NCBI GenBank assembly: GCA_029855935.1
Contig: JAGSHN010000012.1
Location: 160,001 to 224,000, forward strand
DNA from: Candidatus Thorarchaeota archaeon
Lineage (GTDB): Archaea > Asgardarchaeota > Thorarchaeia > Thorarchaeales > Thorarchaeaceae
Reading direction: 5' to 3'
DNA: 64,000 nucleotides
This document shows, one piece after another, positions 3,280 through 12,633 of this stretch. The number at the start of each line of letters is the position of its first letter. Within the stretch, counting starts at the first letter, position 1. The position numbers and the translations under genes were made by a program. The notes beneath the pieces were generated by a model. The model did no database searches and had not been told where the DNA came from. It was given only the letters and a program-made list of their open reading frames with translations.

Positions 3280-4638
3280 ATGGACTTCTACCAAGCGGCA
3301 GGCGTTGAGCCCATTGGCAATCTCCGAAGGACGCATTTGTCAAGCCAGATAACGAACGACTTGGTTGGCCAGACCGTAGTCCTGATGGGCTGGGTTCACA
3401 TCCTACGCGACAAGGGCCGGATCAAGTTTCTCATCCTGAGAGATGAGGGAGGCACGGTCCAGATCACAATTCCGAAGAAGAAGGTGTCTGAGGAGGTCTT
3501 TGATATCTCCGGCCGACTCAAGCCAGAGGCCGTTGTGGCAGTTGAGGGTGAGGTGGTAGAGGCCCCACAGTCAAAGACGGGTGTGGAGGTCATCCCGCAT
3601 TCCATTCACATCCTCAACACTTCTGAGCCTCTGCCCATTGACGTCGTGGAGGGAAAGGTGTCCATAGAGCTTGACACTCGTCTCAATTATCGTATCTTGG
3701 ACCTTCGCAAGCCGACGGTCAATGCAATCTTTCGCATCCAACACTCTCTTGTCCGCTTCTCACGGGAGTTCCTTGAGAGCAACGGCTTTGTCGAGATACA
3801 CACTCCCAAGATTGTGGCTGAGGCGACAGAGGGAGGGGCTAACCTGTTCGAGATACAGTACTTCGAGCGAAAGGCGTTCCTCGCGCAGAGTCCCCAGTTC
3901 TACAAGCAGCTGATGCTGCTGGCTGGCTTTGGCCGCGTCTTTGAGATAGCCCCCGTGTTCCGCGCGGAGAAACATAATACTCGTCGTCACATCAACGAGT
4001 ACACGTCCTTCGATTTCGAGATGGCATGGATTGGAGGTGTGGAGGATGTCATGCAGATGGAGGAGCAGATGCTGAGCTACGCCTTTGCCAAGACCTTGGA
4101 GGCATCAGAGCGGGAGCTCAAACTACTGGGTGTCGATCTCAAGGTTCCGAAGACACCCTTCCCTCGAATCAAGTATGCTGAGGTCATAGACCTGCTCAAC
4201 TCCGAGGGCAAGGAGATCTCCATTCACGACGACCTCGACCCGGAGAGCGAGAGGATGTTGGGAGAGATATTCCCTGAGAAGTTCGGCACCGACTTGGTGT
4301 TCATCACACACTATCCTCTGGAGCTCCGACCAGCGTACACGATGCCGAGCCTGACGGACGAGGGGATGACAGAGAGCTTCGACCTGACCTACAAGGGAAT
4401 GGAGATCACCACCGGCGGGCAGAGAATACATCTCTACGACCTGCTCGTGGAGCGTTTCAAGGCAAAGGGCTTCAACCCCGACCACTTCCGCTTCTACCTC
4501 GACCCGTTCAGGTATGGTGCGCCACCACACGGGGGTCTTGGTCTCGGTGTGGAACGCCTGACGATGCAGCTGCTTGGTCTGGAGAACATCCGTGAGGCCG
4601 CGCTGCTGCCTCGTGACCGCGACCGACTCACCCCATAA
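3280..4638 (+). CDS. aspS: aspartate--tRNA ligase, archaeal type
   Basis: OB-fold [50 protein letters not shown]. Confidence 0.96.
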
Positions 4639-4729
4639 CCAGGGGCAACGTAATACTACGCCTTAAAGGAGCCGCTACGTAGTCGGTGACTGGTCAGCAG
4701 GTGTTGGCAGTAGCGTAGAGGTTTTGAAC

Positions 4730-5509
4730 ATGAGTGATGCTTTCCAGTCCGAAGTGTATGCCTCCATTGCCACACTGGACCAGCTCAAGCGTCTCTACGA
4801 CCTCGGCGATATCGATGTCCGCTTCTTCGAGCGTGAGTCGCGAGCATTGATCAACGAGGTTCAGCGTGGTCTCGAACAGATGAAGCGTCTTGGGCTGGAT
4901 GTGCAGGCCTTTCTGACAGACTGGAGCATACACCAGCGTTTTCCGGAGGCTGCGAATCTACTCGGACTGGTCCCTGCGCAGCCGGCAGGCCCGACGTGGA
5001 CGGCGGGCCAGTGGGCATCGAAAGAGGAGTTCTATGACTACCTAGGTCTGCTTGTTCTTGATGTGGCGACCAAACATTCCTCAAAGGGTCTGATCGGTCT
5101 GGCTGAGATGATAGTCGAGGTGCTCCGCAGCCTGCCTAATCCCCAGGTGGCCAAGTTCACTGACGTCATCGAGGCCGTCAACCGCGTTTCGGGGGCTGGA
5201 CTGATTCCCGGTATCCGTACGCTGAAGGGTGGTGTCAAGGTTGTCGAGCTCCGCCCCCTTGAGCTGAGACGTGATCAGGCCGATGTCATCAATCTCGCGG
5301 CGGGCAAGGGCTACGTTTCTCTTGAAGAGGTGATGATGAACCTCGGTTGGTCCGAGGATCACGCACGACGCGTCCTGGCCAGTCTTGTAGAAGCCGGGAT
5401 AGCGGTCGTGAGCCTGAAGTATAGCACAGGTGGCAGATACTATTTCCCCGGGCTCCGTCCGATGGAACAGGATGGTGGCCCGGACGGCAGTCCTACAGTC
5501 TCAGAGTGA
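4730..5509 (+). CDS. Vps28-N-like / ESCRT-II Vps22-Vps36 (EAP30) winged-helix fusion protein
   Basis: C-terminal EEFYDYLG..V..V...GLI.L...DV..AV..V....PLEL..DQ..V..LA..KGYVS..E....LGW...A...L..LV..G.A........YYFPGL matches EAP30/Vps22. The N-terminal ~80 aa resemble the Vps28 N-domain. Confidence 0.85.
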   Translation: MSDAFQSEVYASIATLDQLKRLYDLGDIDVRFFERESRALINEVQRGLEQMKRLGLDVQAFLTDWSIHQRFPEAANLLGLVPAQPAGPTWTAGQWASKEEFYDYLGLLVLDVATKHSSKGLIGLAEMIVEVLRSLPNPQVAKFTDVIEAVNRVSGAGLIPGIRTLKGGVKVVELRPLELRRDQADVINLAAGKGYVSLEEVMMNLGWSEDHARRVLASLVEAGIAVVSLKYSTGGRYYFPGLRPMEQDGGPDGSPTVSE

Positions 5510-6179
5510 TGGCATGGCGTTTCTTGTCAAGCCACTCGGCCAGTCCGTCCTCCACCAGGATTTGGAGAGCCCTGTGCAGCTCCTCCTCGGGCAGAGATGA
5601 GAAGGTTTCCTCTGGACACTGAATGACAAGGGTCTTGACATCAATCTGCCGTTCCCCTCGCCTCAGTGCCCATGCGTAGATGACCTCGGCCCACTCCTGC
5701 ACGGAGCGCCAGTATACCCTCAGCCTCCTCTTCTCCTCGTCCATCCACTCTGCGACTCCCTGCCCAACCAACCAGTCCCCAATCAGTCTGAATGCCTCAA
5801 TCTTTCCGTGAATCTCGCCGAACTCTCTCTCTATGATGAAATCGCCAAGCGAAACAACATGGGCACCCTGATGCCTCGCCCAGTCGAGCAGATACTCTCC
5901 CCACTCTGCTGTCCATCTTTCCCTTGCCGCGTCATTCTCTGGAACTGTATACATCCACACGGCGGCGCGCGAGCCACCCCATGGAGGCGGTGGTCCTCTC
6001 TCCCTCTGGGCCACGGTGACTGCCTGCGTCCGCACTCTCGCTGAATCCCTCGTCCTGTCGTGGCGTATCGCACCGGAGATTGGGAGCGGCTGACCTCTCG
6101 CTGTTTCCGTAGCTGGTACAGTGTCCCGCTGTTCCCCGGTTCGTTTCTCCCGCTGTTTCCGTTGTTCTCTCACAGCCAC
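5493..6179 (-). CDS. vps25: ESCRT-II subunit Vps25 homologue
   Basis: MYT.P....R..W...W...L..W, LV..G.AEW.D......V.WRS..EWA..IY.WA, F..L..E.L..AL..L...G.A: the tandem WH signature of Vps25. Gene lies immediately downstream of vps4. Confidence 0.88.
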   Translation of the reverse strand: MAVREQRKQREKRTGEQRDTVPATETARGQPLPISGAIRHDRTRDSARVRTQAVTVAQRERGPPPPWGGSRAAVWMYTVPENDAARERWTAEWGEYLLDWARHQGAHVVSLGDFIIEREFGEIHGKIEAFRLIGDWLVGQGVAEWMDEEKRRLRVYWRSVQEWAEVIYAWALRRGERQIDVKTLVIQCPEETFSSLPEEELHRALQILVEDGLAEWLDKKRHAITLRL

Positions 6180-6181
6180 GG

Positions 6182-7381
6182 CTACGGTGCCTCCGCCCAG
6201 CTGACGTACCTGCTTATGTCATTGGCTCTGATGGCTGGCCTCGTCAGGTCGATGGCGTACAGAAAGTCGTCCATACTCACAGGACGCAATACGGGGGTCA
6301 GACCATCACTCGAGAGCTGTCCGGTTCGCTGAAGTTCTCTGATCGGCTCCATTGCAGCCTCCCTGCATATCACGCTGATGTCCCTCCCGCTGTAGCCCTC
6401 GGTCAGGTCGGCAAGATCGCGGAAGCTCACATCTGCAGCGACTTCGACATCACGCATATGGACCCTGAAGATCATCTCCCGGGCATTCAGGTCCGGTAGA
6501 GGCACCAGTATCCGCTTCTCGAATCTGGACAGCAAGGCAAAGTCGAGTTCCCAAGGTAGATTTGTGGCCGCTATCACTGTGACTCGTTCTTCCGGTCTGC
6601 TGTTCAGGCCCTGGAGCTCGGTGAGGAGTTGAGTCTTCAATCGACGTTCTCCTCCGACATCGTCTGAGGAGCGCAGGCTACCGATGGAGTCTATCTCGTC
6701 GACGAAGATGATGGACGGCTGTCTCTCCCGGGCCATTGCGAAGAGAAGGTGGACGAGCCGCTCTGACTCCCCCAACCATTTGCTCACAATATTGGCTGCG
6801 GATACGTTGAAGAAGGTGGCGTTGATCTCTGCGGCTACCGCCTTGGCAATCATGGTCTTTCCGCAACCAGATGGACCATAGAGCAGGATGCCCCTCCACG
6901 GCTGTCTGGCCCGTCCTCGAAATAGCCCCGGATACCTCATTGGGACAATGACTGCGTCGTTGATTGCCTGTTTCGCCATCTCAAGACCCGCCACATCTGT
7001 GAGCCGGACGTTCGGTCTCTCCGTCACCATGGTGTCCTCAAGGGCCTCCATGAGATTGCGAGTTTCTGCAGAATCGGTTGCGAGTTCAGACCGTGGTGAG
7101 GCTGGCGAGACTGGCATGTCCGACGAGCTGGTGGGCCGTGGTCTCCGGGCGCGATGTTCGACAGTCACTCCCGACAGCTGCTTGACTCGCTGTATGCACT
7201 CCTCTGCGCGCCTGTAGTAGTAGTCTCTGACAGAGGGAATGCTTGTAGACCTAGACAGCTGCACGAGGACCCTGCTGGCCTGCAGATATGCCTGACAGGC
7301 CTCTCTTGCGAGGTTCTTCTGGTCCAGCTGTATGGCACGGCCGAGCAGCTCTCTCAGACCGCGGTCTATTCTGTCTGACAT
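6182..7381 (-). CDS. vps4: Vps4/CdvC AAA+ ATPase with N-terminal MIT domain
   Basis: MIT (RA..LD.....EA...Y), PNV...DVAGLE.AK, PWRGILLYGPSGCGKT, SKWLGESERLV, IIFVDEIDS, AATNLPWELD, RFEKRI.VPLPD, TEGYSG.DI. Confidence 0.95.
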   Translation of the reverse strand: MSDRIDRGLRELLGRAIQLDQKNLAREACQAYLQASRVLVQLSRSTSIPSVRDYYYRRAEECIQRVKQLSGVTVEHRARRPRPTSSSDMPVSPASPRSELATDSAETRNLMEALEDTMVTERPNVRLTDVAGLEMAKQAINDAVIVPMRYPGLFRGRARQPWRGILLYGPSGCGKTMIAKAVAAEINATFFNVSAANIVSKWLGESERLVHLLFAMARERQPSIIFVDEIDSIGSLRSSDDVGGERRLKTQLLTELQGLNSRPEERVTVIAATNLPWELDFALLSRFEKRILVPLPDLNAREMIFRVHMRDVEVAADVSFRDLADLTEGYSGRDISVICREAAMEPIRELQRTGQLSSDGLTPVLRPVSMDDFLYAIDLTRPAIRANDISRYVSWAEAP

Positions 7382-7464: not shown

Positions 7465-8814
7465 TCAGCCGGACGTGATCTGTGCCTGCTCTACTACGAT
7501 GGAGGGTGTGATTGCCTCAGAGGTCCTCCTCACATCCCCTCCGACGAGGATCACTCGTCTGAGCAGGTCGAGCATGTTTATTCCGATGAGAGTACTCTTC
7601 ACAGGGTACCGAATCTCTCCATTCTCGAAATAGTATCCCTCCATCACAAGTGCGCTGAGGTCGCCTGTCGTCATATTCGGTCTGTCGCCCGTGTCGCGAC
7701 AGAGTATACCGCGACCCACCTCTTCAACCAGATCCATCAGCCCGCCTCTTCCCGGTTGGACTATGAGATTACTTGGAGCAATCCTTGGAGGGCTGGAGTA
7801 GGAGGATCGGCTTGCGTGAGCGGTGTTCTCAACTTGATCCTTCTGTGCAGTGTACGAGTTGTGCAGTAGACTCTTTAGTACTCCCTGCTCAAGTAGCATT
7901 ATTCTCCTCGACGGAACCCCCTCTCCGTCGAACGGTCTTGAGCTGACCTCTCCAGGGCTCAGCGCATCATCTACTATAGTCAGGTGTTCAGAGGCTATCT
8001 GCTGTCCGAGGGCATCGGCGACGTACGACCGGCCGAACTGAACCTCCTCAGCGTTGACCGCTCCACCGAACCCGCCGCCAAGTACCGAGCCGACAGCTAT
8101 CGGCCCGAATACCACCGGCATCTTGTCGTTCTCAATTCTTCTGCCTCCGAGGTTTGCGATGACCGCAGCGGCCGCCTCTCTACCGACCTTCTCAGGGTCG
8201 AACTCGCGCAATGCTCGCGCCAGCTCATATTCAGAGCTCGATGTCTGTTCATCCTCTGTCTTGATGGTCGGAGCCGAGTAGATGTATCCGGTAGTCCCCT
8301 CGTAGTATGCCTCGATGCCCAACGAATTCACGATGCCAGCGCCCCCACGCGAGGTCCGCATCTGTGCCTCAATTGCATACTTGTAGTCTGACAAGCTCTC
8401 TTTGGTCGCGTCGACCATCCTTGTGACAATGTCGGCGGCCTCTTCGGAGCTGAGGTTGGCCATCGCCCGGTCGTAGAGTCTCTCAACAACTGGATATCCA
8501 CCGCTCGCCGAGGGGAGCGATCCAAAATCGGGGTCGGGGACAGAGACATGTGCGAGCGAGATGGCTCTCTCGACAGCGGCCCTGACGTCCTCCTCTCGGA
8601 TGGTCGTGACGTATGCAAAGCCGATTCTACTATCAATGACACACCTTATTCCACAGCCACTGTCACACCTCTCTGCAGCGCTCTTGATTGAGTTGTTCTC
8701 CACCTCAATTGTGAACGAGCGAGTGCTCGCCACAAAGGCCTCGGCCTGCTCGGCGCCTTGTCTCTCAGCGTGTCTGACCGCTATCTCAGCGATACCAAGT
8801 ATCTCTTCCCGCAC
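7465..8814 (-). CDS. pmbA: PmbA/TldE family protein (non-catalytic TldD partner)
   Basis: GA..AE.F, G.GIR, SRPFDGEGVP, L.E.GVL...LH..YTA, TGD.S. No HExxxH motif. GTG start at 8814 just after the tldD stop. Confidence 0.9.
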   Translation of the reverse strand: MREEILGIAEIAVRHAERQGAEQAEAFVASTRSFTIEVENNSIKSAAERCDSGCGIRCVIDSRIGFAYVTTIREEDVRAAVERAISLAHVSVPDPDFGSLPSASGGYPVVERLYDRAMANLSSEEAADIVTRMVDATKESLSDYKYAIEAQMRTSRGGAGIVNSLGIEAYYEGTTGYIYSAPTIKTEDEQTSSSEYELARALREFDPEKVGREAAAAVIANLGGRRIENDKMPVVFGPIAVGSVLGGGFGGAVNAEEVQFGRSYVADALGQQIASEHLTIVDDALSPGEVSSRPFDGEGVPSRRIMLLEQGVLKSLLHNSYTAQKDQVENTAHASRSSYSSPPRIAPSNLIVQPGRGGLMDLVEEVGRGILCRDTGDRPNMTTGDLSALVMEGYYFENGEIRYPVKSTLIGINMLDLLRRVILVGGDVRRTSEAITPSIVVEQAQITSG

Positions 8815-8816
8815 CT

Positions 8817-10202
8817 CTACATCCCTCCGACAGGAACTTCTGTGGCCCGTGCGTGTGGTCCACCGCTCATGTCCGGCACCCATTGACCATTCTTTCCGCA
8901 AGTACCTGCGTCAAGCTCGAAGTCCCTGCCCACCGCGTCTATCTTGGAGAGAACCTCCAGTATGAGACCTGACAGCGAAACATCCCTGACCATCTGGCCA
9001 ATCTCTCCCTTCTTGATCACGTATCCGTATTGGGCTTGAAACATGAAATGTCCCATAGAGGGGTTCGTGTAGCCGTAGTTGAATCTGCACAGGAGAAGGC
9101 CATGTCTGGTGTCCTCAATCAGCTCATCAACATCCCAGTCACCCGGCTCCATGAACGTGTTGCTCATCCTCGGGATGGGTACGTGTGCATAGGACTCAGC
9201 TCTGGCTGCGCCATTCGACTCCATCCCCAGCCTAGATGCCGTTTCGAGAGAGTGGAGTATCTCTGTCAAGATGCCGTCTTTGACAAGGATTCGCTTTCTC
9301 GTCTTTGTCCCTTCCCAGTCATATGGGTAGGATCCGCGGGCACAGTCCAGCGTGGGATCATCACTTATGTTGAGCCACTCTGGTCCGACACTCTGTCCGA
9401 GCTTGTCCTCAAGGACTGTTGTGTGCGCAGGCCAGCCATCGGCCTCACAGGCGTGTCCAAACGCCTCATGCACCATTACGCCGTTGAGGACCGGATCCAT
9501 CACGACATCGTAGACGCCTCCCCTTACAGCCACCGACGAGAGCAGGTCGACGGCGGTTCTTGCGGCTCTCTCTCCAACCGTCTGAGCGTCCTCTTCCATC
9601 ATCATCTCGAACCCGCCCTTTACTCCGACAGACCTGTAGGCACGCTGCCGATTCGCCCCCTCTCTTGCCGTTATTGACGATATGATGCGCGGGAGGGAGT
9701 TCTCAATATACACAGAGGTCCCAAGAGAATTGGCCACATAGAGCTCGCTCCACAGCTCCCCGTATACAGTCCTCGCATTGGAGACACGCTCGTCAAACTC
9801 ACGTGCCTGCATGTCAATCTGTTTGACAAACTCCATCTTCTCCTCCATCGGGACATCAGGGAAGGGGCGCCTGACGGAGATGAACTCCTTCGCCCTGAAA
9901 GTGGGGCCGTCGATCTCAAATCGTTCGGCAACAAGTGGACGGACAGCGAGAGCCAGCTTGGTAGCAGACTCGCCAACCCCTCGCATTCCCTCGGGTGTGA
10001 GTTCCGTCGTCTGAGCAAAGGCCCACGCCCCGTCGATGAACGCCCTCACTCCTGCGCCTCTGAGATGGGCGGACATCGACCTCCGAGTCACGCCATTGAC
10101 CATCTCTATAACGGTAGAGTGAGTGTTCTCAATTCTCACGTCAGCGAACGATGCTCCTGCGTCGAGTGCAGACTCTACGGCAATCTGGGCAAGGTCTTCC
10201 AT
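8817..10202 (-). CDS. tldD: TldD family metalloprotease
   Basis: GA.FADVR.E, G.GVRA...G.W.FA, HEAFGHACEAD, DDPT, YD.EG, PIPRMSNTF..PG, CGK.GQ.VP...GGPH. Confidence 0.93.
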   Translation of the reverse strand: MEDLAQIAVESALDAGASFADVRIENTHSTVIEMVNGVTRRSMSAHLRGAGVRAFIDGAWAFAQTTELTPEGMRGVGESATKLALAVRPLVAERFEIDGPTFRAKEFISVRRPFPDVPMEEKMEFVKQIDMQAREFDERVSNARTVYGELWSELYVANSLGTSVYIENSLPRIISSITAREGANRQRAYRSVGVKGGFEMMMEEDAQTVGERAARTAVDLLSSVAVRGGVYDVVMDPVLNGVMVHEAFGHACEADGWPAHTTVLEDKLGQSVGPEWLNISDDPTLDCARGSYPYDWEGTKTRKRILVKDGILTEILHSLETASRLGMESNGAARAESYAHVPIPRMSNTFMEPGDWDVDELIEDTRHGLLLCRFNYGYTNPSMGHFMFQAQYGYVIKKGEIGQMVRDVSLSGLILEVLSKIDAVGRDFELDAGTCGKNGQWVPDMSGGPHARATEVPVGGM

Positions 10203-10340
10203 CAGAATCACTAGCCGGTCGCATACACCGCTCGTTATAATTGCTTTGAAGAGTGAGTGGCGGTCGGTGTAACCTTGGTGATACACAGCTCTTTCTTATC
10301 CCATCACTGAGTCGAGACCAAGGCACACGGAGGCACACAG

Positions 10341-11909
10341 TTGAGTCAAGAATCCGCGCGCGACTCTTGCCAGGTCTGCAGAAGGTCTAACGGCGTCTAC
10401 TTCTGTGAGGACTGCGGTGCTGTTCTGTGTGCTGACTGTGTTGAAACGGTCACAAGCGACTTCTACTTCTGTGGCGACTGCCACTCCCAGATCCCGTCCT
10501 CGGAGACCGACAATCATCCGCAGAAGTGTCCCGAGTGTGGCTCCGAAGAGATTCGTACGGGGCGCCGGGAAGAGGAACGATGCCCCCGGTGTCACTCGAC
10601 AAGGCTTGTGCTCGTGTCGGAAAAGCGACGTACTCTCGCTCAGGACCTGCGTCAGGCAATCAATGTTCTCCAGTACGGACACTCAAGATTTCACGAGCTC
10701 TCTAGACGTCTTACTCGGATTGTCGAGACTCTGGTGTCACTACGGATGGCAAAGTTCGTCCACTACCACTGGCTTGAGCGCCACTTGGAGGAATTGCAGG
10801 AGGAGGTCCCTGCACTCAGGAACCGAATAGTCAACCGGGCCGAGATGGTGGCGCGCCAGATGGCTGCGGAAACATCAGGGATAATGCACGACCCTCTATG
10901 GACGGCTGACCAGTTCCCGTTCATATCAGGTGTGGTGAACAGGCTGCGCGAGCTTGGACGGGAGTACAAGGAGCGAGTCGATGAGACCCTCGCTGGTGCA
11001 TTCCGTCGTCTGGAGGAGATCAGCAAGACGATTGAGGGTCTCGAGTATTTCCGACGAGCCTTTGTGGCCTTTTCTAGCCTCGTCCCCCTTGAGGTCAATG
11101 AGCTGCCCGTCTGTGCACTGCCGGATATCCGCCTCACGGGGTCCGACTTTCTCAAGCACGACAAAGCCGCAGGAACGCTCTATCTGACCGACCGGCGAAT
11201 GGTCTTCATTGCCACCACTGGGACTATTCGAAAGAGGGAGTCCGTGGTCTTTGACTTTCCTCTGCCGTATCTGTCGGGGATTGAGGAGGACGGCAGACGG
11301 AAGAAGCGTCTTGTTCTGAGGATGCAACAAGGCGACATCAGGATAGTCTGTCCTGAGGGAACACGACGTGTGATGAGCGACTACATGGAGATTGCTCGCA
11401 GCTTTGCCAAGTATGCACAGACCAATCTTCAGCGTACGAGGCAGCTGCAGCGGTTCAGTTGTGCGCCTGATGAGGTGAGGATCCGTATATTGGATCTGAT
11501 TGATGACCTGCTCTCTCGAGAACGACGCAGAGCGATTGCCATGAGCGGTACGGGGGCGTACACTCGCTCTCCTCCTCCGGTCCACAGCTGGGGCTATCCG
11601 GAGACCTCGAATAGTCCTAGGGCCACATTCTCGGGGTCGCCATTCAGTCCGCAGGCCACAAGTCCAGATAGTCGCTACAGCTTGGACGGCTCGTATGTGA
11701 GAACGGCTGCGACTTCGCCCCCGCGCGGTGTCTACTCGCAACACTATGGCGACGGGGACATGACTGCACTACTCAATCACGAGATCCAAGAGACAATACG
11801 TGCACTCAGACGGGGTCGACTTCCTCCTGACGAGTTTGTTCGGCGTTATCGTGACCTGATGCGGAGTTCATTTGAGATGGAGCGACGCTTCTACGAAAGG
11901 GTTCGGTAG
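10341..11909 (+). CDS. multidomain ESCRT-I-like protein: 12-Cys zinc module, coiled coil, GRAM/GLUE-like PH domain, Pro/Ser linker, steadiness box
   Basis: Six CxxC pairs in aa 10-84; helical aa 95-240; LEVNE..AGTLYLTDRRMVF..FPL..L..IEE at aa 250-352; C-terminal IRALRRGRLPPDEFVRRYRDLMRSSF. Located inside the ESCRT cluster. Confidence 0.75.
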   Translation: MSQESARDSCQVCRRSNGVYFCEDCGAVLCADCVETVTSDFYFCGDCHSQIPSSETDNHPQKCPECGSEEIRTGRREEERCPRCHSTRLVLVSEKRRTLAQDLRQAINVLQYGHSRFHELSRRLTRIVETLVSLRMAKFVHYHWLERHLEELQEEVPALRNRIVNRAEMVARQMAAETSGIMHDPLWTADQFPFISGVVNRLRELGREYKERVDETLAGAFRRLEEISKTIEGLEYFRRAFVAFSSLVPLEVNELPVCALPDIRLTGSDFLKHDKAAGTLYLTDRRMVFIATTGTIRKRESVVFDFPLPYLSGIEEDGRRKKRLVLRMQQGDIRIVCPEGTRRVMSDYMEIARSFAKYAQTNLQRTRQLQRFSCAPDEVRIRILDLIDDLLSRERRRAIAMSGTGAYTRSPPPVHSWGYPETSNSPRATFSGSPFSPQATSPDSRYSLDGSYVRTAATSPPRGVYSQHYGDGDMTALLNHEIQETIRALRRGRLPPDEFVRRYRDLMRSSFEMERRFYERVR

Positions 11910-12000: not shown

Positions 12001-12633
12001 CTAGAGGCCAAGCCTCCTCTCAAGCGCCTGAATCTCTTCTGCCAGTCTGTCGGGTGGTGCCTTGGTGGATGGAGTGGTCCCCCTACGGCCGCCACTCTCC
12101 ACAACCTCGGAATCTATCTCCGCCATCACGTCTGCCAGCTCCTCAGGAGCAATTCTGCCATCCGTGGCTCCGTGGAGGGTCTCCTCGAAGATGCCGTTCT
12201 CAATCTCGAACTGCTCGAGTCTTCGTGCCACCTCGTCGAGATTCTGAATGACCCTCTTGGCACTGATCTCTTCTCCGAGGATACCAAAGATTGCTGCCAC
12301 CCTCTCCATGCCTATGTTGACTCTTGCTGTTATCCTCGCTCGCTTGATGTAGGACGCAATACGTAGAAGAGAGAACCGGACACGCTCGATCTTGAGAATA
12401 TCACGATGTGTCCGCAGGACCTCCCCGGCATAGAGTATGCAGGCCTCGTTCTGCCCGTTTCTGCGAGCTGTCACTGCCCGCCTCTTGGCATCGGCAGCCA
12501 GTTTCTCCAGATGGTTGCGCTCACGTTCGAGCTCTCTGGCCATCACCTGAAGACCGCTGACAATCTCCGTGACATCTGGCTTTTTTCTGCCCCATATGGC
12601 GGCCCGCTTCAACAGACGCAATAGTTTCACCAC
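12001..12633 (-). CDS. ESCRT-III (Snf7 family), Vps2/24/46-like
   Basis: Basic N-terminal helix, RELERER..LE, A.R.G..EA...YA.E.LR, acidic C-terminal half, terminal EEIQALERRLGL MIM1-like helix. Confidence 0.88.
   Translation of the reverse strand: MVKLLRLLKRAAIWGRKKPDVTEIVSGLQVMARELERERNHLEKLAADAKRRAVTARRNGQNEACILYAGEVLRTHRDILKIERVRFSLLRIASYIKRARITARVNIGMERVAAIFGILGEEISAKRVIQNLDEVARRLEQFEIENGIFEETLHGATDGRIAPEELADVMAEIDSEVVESGGRRGTTPSTKAPPDRLAEEIQALERRLGL

Follow-up and report, generated by a model that had tools for sequence, protein, structure and literature searches.

In eukaryotes, Vps22 meets ESCRT-I non-covalently, via Vps36 and the C-terminal domain of Vps28. The stretch of DNA analysed here, referred to as the window (64,000 nt, G000:C21:160001-224000, from a genome of 2.97 Mb that is 97.3% complete), contains a gene in which this arrangement might be replaced by a covalent one: a preliminary description had read its product as a Vps28-like N-terminal domain followed by the winged helices of Vps22, so that ESCRT-I would be tied to ESCRT-II within one polypeptide. 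This raises the questions whether the N-terminal domain indeed is of the Vps28 type, whether the junction is genuine, how it arose and what the joined protein may do. Our analysis supports the view that the product of 4730-5509 is, as judged from its sequence, the form that the ESCRT-II subunit Vps22 takes in Thorarchaeota, its N-terminal helices having been swapped for a Vps28 steadiness-box domain. The explanation as a whole, i.e. a Vps22 headed by Vps28-N that originated from the fusion of neighbouring genes and for which docking on a steadiness box (SB) is the proposed function, appears very probable to us.

Architecture of the gene product and its Vps22 core

The vps22 fusion gene (4730..5509, plus strand) is an intact ORF encoding a Vps28-N/Vps22 chimera of 259 aa, the same length as that of the database copy of the protein (P0002). 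The ORF caller had proposed a start at a TTG codon (4724-5509), but the ATG at 4730 is the true start, since a GAGG-like motif lies about 10 nt upstream of it and the homologues begin there with MSxxxQSE. The protein's nearest relatives carry the label Candidatus Thorarchaeota, and more than 130 homologues from Thorarchaeota, all of about 250 aa, share 54-69% identity with it over 93-99% of its length. Across 27-52 Thorarchaeota homologues, the YASIATLDQLKK motif shows no or almost no variation.

Four segments can be distinguished. The Vps28 N-terminal (steadiness-box) domain spans aa 1-80 (4730..4969, plus strand) and consists of two long helices (residues 2-25 and 30-53) plus three short ones. 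It is followed by a Pro/Gly-rich junction linker of about 15 aa (aa 81-95, 4970..5014, plus strand), which differs in sequence and length between homologues, and by the first (aa ~96-175, 5015..5254, plus strand) and second (aa ~176-242, 5255..5455, plus strand) winged helix of the EAP30/Vps22 core. The first winged helix is composed of helices at residues 98-115, 124-134 and 143-155 and strands at residues 121-123, 161-164 and 170-173. A structural model of the full-length protein displays both winged helices with an overall pLDDT of 85.6, which falls below 50 at residues 84-89. The PAQPAGP linker of the preliminary description is thus real and coincides with this region of low pLDDT; the boundary of the domain in front of it needs a correction, in that the preceding FPEAxxLL helix still is part of the Vps28-N fold. 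It is within this very helix that phmmer begins to align the protein to human SNF8, an alignment that is weak over those first residues.

The identity of the C-terminal part is clear from several comparisons. Residues 72-229 match positions 58-217 of the Pfam EAP30 profile (PF04157) with 38.8 bits against a cut-off of 26.8, and phmmer aligns residues 73-244 to human SNF8 (E ~1e-15). When the full-length model was compared to solved structures using Foldseek, the Vps22 chains 3cuq_A (1.4e-9), 2zme_A and 1u5t_A ranked ahead of the Vps36 and Vps25 chains, the best PDB match being human SNF8. Likewise, BLASTP aligns residues 71-242 with residues 78-248 of Vps22 from G030, a genome of another Asgard family, at 36% identity (E 1e-30). 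The tandem winged-helix core is therefore common to this protein and eukaryotic Vps22/SNF8 (3CUQ_A, 2ZME_A, 1U5T_A), as had been proposed for the region behind the linker. The two differ in what precedes this core: eukaryotic Vps22 packs on Vps36 with N-terminal helices of its own, and the Thorarchaeota protein has Vps28-N in their place. This difference is also evident from the Pfam comparison, in which positions 1-57 of the EAP30 profile, corresponding to the N-terminal helical region, find no match in the fusion protein, whereas the EAP30 match of other Asgard Vps22 proteins begins at profile positions 1-6.

Identity of the N-terminal domain

Comparison of the protein with the Pfam VPS28 profile (PF03997) aligns residues 9-71 to profile positions 2-66 at 14.6-17.4 bits, which is below the cut-off of 24.5 (E = 0.029 for the whole protein and 0.0039 for the N-terminus alone), and we did not count this sub-threshold match as proof of Vps28 identity. 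A far clearer result was obtained by profile-profile comparison. In hhalign, an alignment of the N-terminal domain matches 18 Asgard Vps28 proteins with 99.0% and an E-value of 2.7e-18, residues 4-80 pairing with Vps28 residues 17-93, and ordinary Asgard Vps22 proteins reach only 0.2-0.3% against the same Vps28 profile (0.3% for Vps22 of G030). BLASTP directly aligns residues 5-89 with residues 20-102 of the G030 Vps28 at 29% identity (E 1e-9). A profile of residues 1-80 searched against 1.84 billion representative proteins retrieved 48 proteins, among them Vps28 proteins at E-values down to 1e-12. Among the 40 matches that are not fragments, 26 carry VPS28, four Vps23_core, four UQ_con and one is another EAP30 fusion; leaving Thorarchaeota Vps22 fragments aside, most of the matches are about 200-220 aa long and are matched at their N-termini. 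The matches with Vps23_core and UQ_con are consistent with UEV-Vps23-Vps28 fusions such as the one known from Heimdallarchaeota. Within the genome itself, a profile search detected no paralogue of the N-terminal domain, the remaining matches having E-values of at least 0.15.

The structural comparison points in the same direction. An AF2 model of residues 1-80 (pLDDT 93.8) was submitted to Foldseek, and the nine best matches are all Vps28-N chains (TMq 0.70-0.84, rmsd 2-3.5 A), with E-values of 0.13-0.37 that are weak, as found for this helical domain of 80 residues. VIA-align places three chains of human and yeast Vps28-N, 6vme_U (Z 11.5), 2f6m_D (Z 10.2) and 2caz_B (Z 9.1), on top, each superposed over 78 residues with an rmsd of about 2.1 A, followed by unrelated S15 proteins with Z 8.8 and below over 65-68 residues; these scores have to be read with the caveat that many unrelated folds get middling Z scores against helical hairpins. 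The 50 best structural matches of the N-terminal domain include neither a Vps22 nor a Vps36 chain.

One could argue that the region is nothing but the ordinary helical domain of Vps22/EAP30, or a generic helical hairpin whose likeness to Vps28 is due to chance. The two regions are helical, short and alike in length, the alignment to SNF8 extends from residue 73 onwards and the Pfam VPS28 match stays below its threshold, all of which would fit such a reading. It is, however, difficult to reconcile with the hhalign match to Asgard Vps28, with the 0.2-0.3% scored by ordinary Asgard Vps22, with the EAP30 positions 1-57 that are matched in other lineages and not here, and with the composition of the top 50 structural matches, so that we consider it highly improbable. 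The assignment of the first 80 residues to the Vps28-N type, including the residues quoted for it in the preliminary description, hence stands, as does the claim that this domain stands in for the helices ordinarily found at the N-terminus of Vps22.

Eukaryotic and Asgard Vps28 (PF03997; 6VME, 2F6M, 2CAZ) share with the fusion protein the N-domain fold and the motif ELYAxIATLD...FPxA. In contrast, Vps28 proteins have a C-terminal four-helix bundle, which is lacking in the fusion protein and in the place of which the winged helices are found. Since only positions 2-66 of PF03997 are matched and residues 96-242 form winged helices, the protein is not a Vps28 but carries just the N-terminal domain of one, in agreement with the proposed loss of the Vps28 C-terminal domain.

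Genuineness, distribution and proposed origin of the fusion

In other Asgard lineages vps22 is usually preceded directly by a separate vps28 gene of the same strand. In G030, for example, UEV-Vps23 (262 aa), Vps28 (222 aa) and Vps22 (250 aa) are encoded in this order in one operon, the last two genes overlapping by 4 nt. The two genes thus adjoin or even overlap in other Asgard, and a frameshift error could mimic a fusion, i.e. the junction could be an artefact of assembly or gene calling that joins two separate genes. Against this speaks that the same architecture of about 250 aa recurs in more than 130 proteins of independent assemblies and in 27/27 sampled genomes of the family, and that a simple read-through would keep two parts that are gone here, namely the C-terminal domain of Vps28 and the N-helices of Vps22. 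Moreover, a Logan contig of 12.7 kb with a depth of about 31 shows no differences over positions 4500-5700, although its probable origin is the source sample and it does not constitute independent evidence; the sole public run with matching DNA is a hydrothermal vent metagenome, probably that sample, and RNA runs with matching sequence are not listed. Taken together, the probability of an artefact is practically negligible, and the suspicion of an assembly chimera raised at the outset can be dismissed.

The fusion is also retained among related genomes. With the full-length alignment as query, a full-length match (positions 1 to ~248) was obtained in the genome under study and in 26/26 other sampled genomes of the same family. 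A full-length fusion is likewise present in G025, which belongs to a second family of the same order and in which the protein matches EAP30 and, at 26.9 bits and hence above the cut-off, also VPS28. No match in the other Asgard families begins before column 19, and most begin at columns 54-136. Three candidates for a partial N-domain, with matches starting within columns 19-42, were inspected and rejected: those in G046 and G067 are EAP30 proteins of the ordinary kind, N-helices included, the EAP30 match of the one in G036 does not begin until profile position 76, and a VPS28 match is lacking in all three.

The occurrence of a separate Vps28 shows the opposite pattern. PF03997 was above its cut-off in 0/25 genomes searched of the same family (the own genome included), whereas this was the case in 11/15 genomes of other Asgard families, the match adjoining vps22 in ten of them; in G025 the match is the fusion protein itself. 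As these figures stem from HMM searches of six-frame translations, and as the MAGs are a sample and for the most part incomplete, the absence of a canonical Vps28 means that it was not found in the genomes searched. We propose that vps28 and vps22, as neighbouring genes, would have been joined in frame to give the fusion, and that the C-terminal domain of Vps28 and the N-helices of Vps22 would have been lost in the process.

Some further observations were made in the course of these searches. In G031, from another Asgard lineage, a 98-aa ORF without a Pfam match (L014:2098-2394) lies between vps28 and vps22. Outside the window, the genome under study encodes an E/K-rich coiled-coil protein of 444 aa (G000:C21:~327383-328717; L001:1351-2685) that weakly matches almost the entire VPS28 profile (positions 17-185, E ~1e-3), and similar ORFs of about 410-450 aa with the same weak match occur in at least eight related genomes (G001, G002, G004, G006, G008, G016, G021, G023). 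This protein may be of the 'BAR-SB' type (Makarova et al. 2024), a divergent relative of Vps28 or coiled-coil noise; the second PF03997 match of the genome, which it produces (G000:C21:327533-328054), was not accepted as a Vps28, given its E/K-rich coiled coil and weak matches only. In addition, most genomes of the family contain a second EAP30-like winged-helix pair within an ORF of about 780-850 aa (e.g. G003:C1:698515-698961, G013:C39:65132-65632 and G010:C28:47444-47932). No such second pair was detected in the own genome at an E-value of 1e-5; a weak EAP30 match lies at the start of contig C27 (413-571), and the gene may be cut by the end of this contig.

The ESCRT locus, a proposed partner and known systems

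The fusion gene is embedded in an ESCRT locus, in which it adjoins the genes for Vps25 and Vps4. The vps25 gene (ESCRT-II; 5493..6179, minus strand; Pfam ESCRT-II PF05871, E 2.3e-14) is convergent with vps22, the 3' ends of both genes overlapping by 17 nt (5493-5509), and in its product the ESCRT-II domain is preceded by about 75 additional N-terminal aa with a high content of R, E and P. It is followed by the gene for the AAA ATPase Vps4 with MIT, AAA and Vps4_C domains (6182..7381, minus strand; E 2.8e-6, 5.9e-40 and 9.8e-5, respectively). Further on lie a gene for a Znr_CC_PH_SB protein of 522 aa (10341..11909, plus strand), a family described by Makarova et al. (2024, mBio 15:e00335-24, PMC10936438), and an ESCRT-III gene of the Snf7 family (12001..12633, minus strand; Pfam Snf7, E 6e-9). 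Two TldD/PmbA peptidase genes (7465-10286, minus strand) stand between vps4 and the Znr_CC_PH_SB gene, so that this metallopeptidase pair splits an ESCRT locus whose genes follow one another without interruption in ThorAB25 (SB, ESCRT-IIIA, Vps4, Vps25, Vps22).

The 522-aa protein, a likely partner of ESCRT-I type, has B-box/zinc-ribbon matches and, at aa 487-511, the best (though sub-threshold) Vps23_core match of the genome, and is the orthologue of ThorAB25_08990, designated 'SB' in Supplementary Data 1 of Hatano et al. (2022, Nat Commun 13:3398, PMC9192718). Its C-terminal hairpin, itself sub-threshold, is the only Vps23_core-like element found in the genome. Searches for UEV (PF05743) or ubiquitin (PF00240) gave no match at E <= 0.1 in this 97.3%-complete genome, which agrees with published statements that Thorarchaeota are devoid of ubiquitin and UEV-Vps23. 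The steadiness-box hairpin of the 522-aa protein (aa 466-522, 11736..11906, plus strand) carries a FxRRYxxLMR motif that is conserved in 37 orthologues.

We predicted a complex of this hairpin (aa 466-522, alignment of 37 rows) with the N-terminal domain of the fusion protein (alignment of 27 rows). The ipSAE was 0.86 in all three runs, compared to 0.00 for the best of three controls; in calibration, this mark was reached by 58/80 solved complexes and by 2/110 mismatched pairs. The contacts of the three runs coincide to at least 91%, and the pLDDT of the partner is at least 90. In the predicted interface, the conserved YASIATLDQL helix lies against a conserved face of the steadiness box formed by F34, Y38 and R43, corresponding to F499, Y503 and R508 of the 522-aa protein. 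Since Vps23-C:Vps28-N pairs have already been solved (2F6M, 2CAZ, 6VME), passing this prediction speaks for likeness to these complexes rather than for binding of this particular pair.

Based on this prediction, Vps28-N would pack on the Vps23-type steadiness box at the C-terminus of Znr_CC_PH_SB and thereby mirror the contact between Vps28-N and Vps23 known from the ESCRT-I headpiece. This would couple the zinc-finger/PH adaptor directly to Vps22-Vps25 and, via these, to ESCRT-III and Vps4, and the coupling would do without a non-covalent contact between ESCRT-I and ESCRT-II. In the most likely model, the fusion would allow direct recruitment of Vps22-Vps25 by the Znr_CC_PH_SB adaptor. A covalent link between ESCRT-I and ESCRT-II through the fusion, as the preliminary description had suggested, is what we infer from this modelled arrangement.

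The Vps28-N domain might instead mainly serve to dimerise Vps22 and not dock on another SB protein, a role that would be compatible with the main explanation. Thorarchaeota Vps22 interacts with itself in the yeast two-hybrid (Y2H) data that Hatano et al. (2022) report for it, and the replaced N-helices are those that likely promote the interaction of Vps22 with Vps36 (Makarova et al. 2024); in eukaryotes the N-terminal helical domains pair Vps22 with Vps36. Yet the winged helices could equally mediate the self-interaction, Vps28-N pairs with hairpins of Vps23 and Vps37 in the solved ESCRT-I cores, and the heteromer predicted with the SB of the neighbouring gene product passes with clean controls. 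We therefore regard dimerisation as the main role of the domain as unlikely, and docking on the steadiness box of Znr_CC_PH_SB remains our preferred reading.

The architecture itself is not new. Makarova et al. (2024) state that Asgard Vps22 in general is fused to SB, and their Table S3 lists the N-terminus of a Thorarchaeota Vps22 (KXH75178.1, residues 1-70) as matching PF03997, 'VPS28 protein (N-terminal domain - SB)', with an HHpred value of 99%. Their asCOG cog.002769 ('Vps22#') has the same Vps28-N/steadiness box followed by two winged helices, comes from the same phylum-level lineage and is found in the same neighbourhood with Vps25, Vps4, ESCRT-III and Znr_CC_PH_SB. Nothing essential distinguishes it from the gene in the window, which is probably the orthologue of another species (54-69% identity to database relatives). 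The protein ThorAB25_09030, which Hatano et al. (2022) used as 'Vps22' in their Y2H analysis, shows by eye the same SELxASIATLDQLKK start and belongs to the same length class, and its locus comprises SB, ESCRT-IIIA, Vps4 and Vps25; the window differs from this locus by the two TldD/PmbA genes between vps4 and the SB gene. In the parts of their publication drawn on here, ThorAB25_09030 is annotated simply as Vps22, the text does not mention a Vps28-N domain, and the Thorarchaeota set consists of SB, Vps22, Vps25, ESCRT-III and Vps4, with no Vps28.

A fusion that also joins ESCRT subunits which are separate in eukaryotes is the UEV-Vps23-Vps28 protein HeimAB125_14070 of Heimdallarchaeota (Hatano et al. 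2022), and its Vps28 part is matched by our N-domain profile. This fusion stays within ESCRT-I and keeps the Vps28 C-terminal domain, whereas the Thorarchaeota fusion spans ESCRT-I and ESCRT-II and has dropped this domain.

As the fusion architecture was already published in 2024, the value of the window is confirmatory. A modest addition concerns its distribution: the SB fusion is stated for Asgard Vps22 generally (Makarova et al. 2024), but the Vps28-type N-domain was found here only in the family of the window and one sister family, which restricts it to one order among the sampled genomes. Further additions are the origin from neighbouring genes that the gene order suggests and the predicted SB interface, which would join the two most conserved motifs.

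A more tentative idea, which we consider possible but doubtful, concerns the two segments that were deleted together. The Vps28 C-terminal bundle and the Vps22 N-helices might bind each other in the other Asgard lineages, which lack Vps36, and the fusion would then be a natural covalent bypass that marks the ancestral interface between ESCRT-I and ESCRT-II. If this were true, the fusion would also define a minimal pathway independent of ubiquitin, which would run from Znr_CC_PH_SB via Vps28N-Vps22 to Vps25 and on to ESCRT-III and Vps4.

In a lineage that apparently lacks ubiquitin, UEV-Vps23 and a free Vps28, the fusion is a natural Rosetta stone that connects ESCRT-I with ESCRT-II. The tail of Znr_CC_PH_SB and Vps22 provide a compact two-protein system for biochemistry, and the fusion suggests how a simpler chain from cargo to scission may be wired in these archaea.
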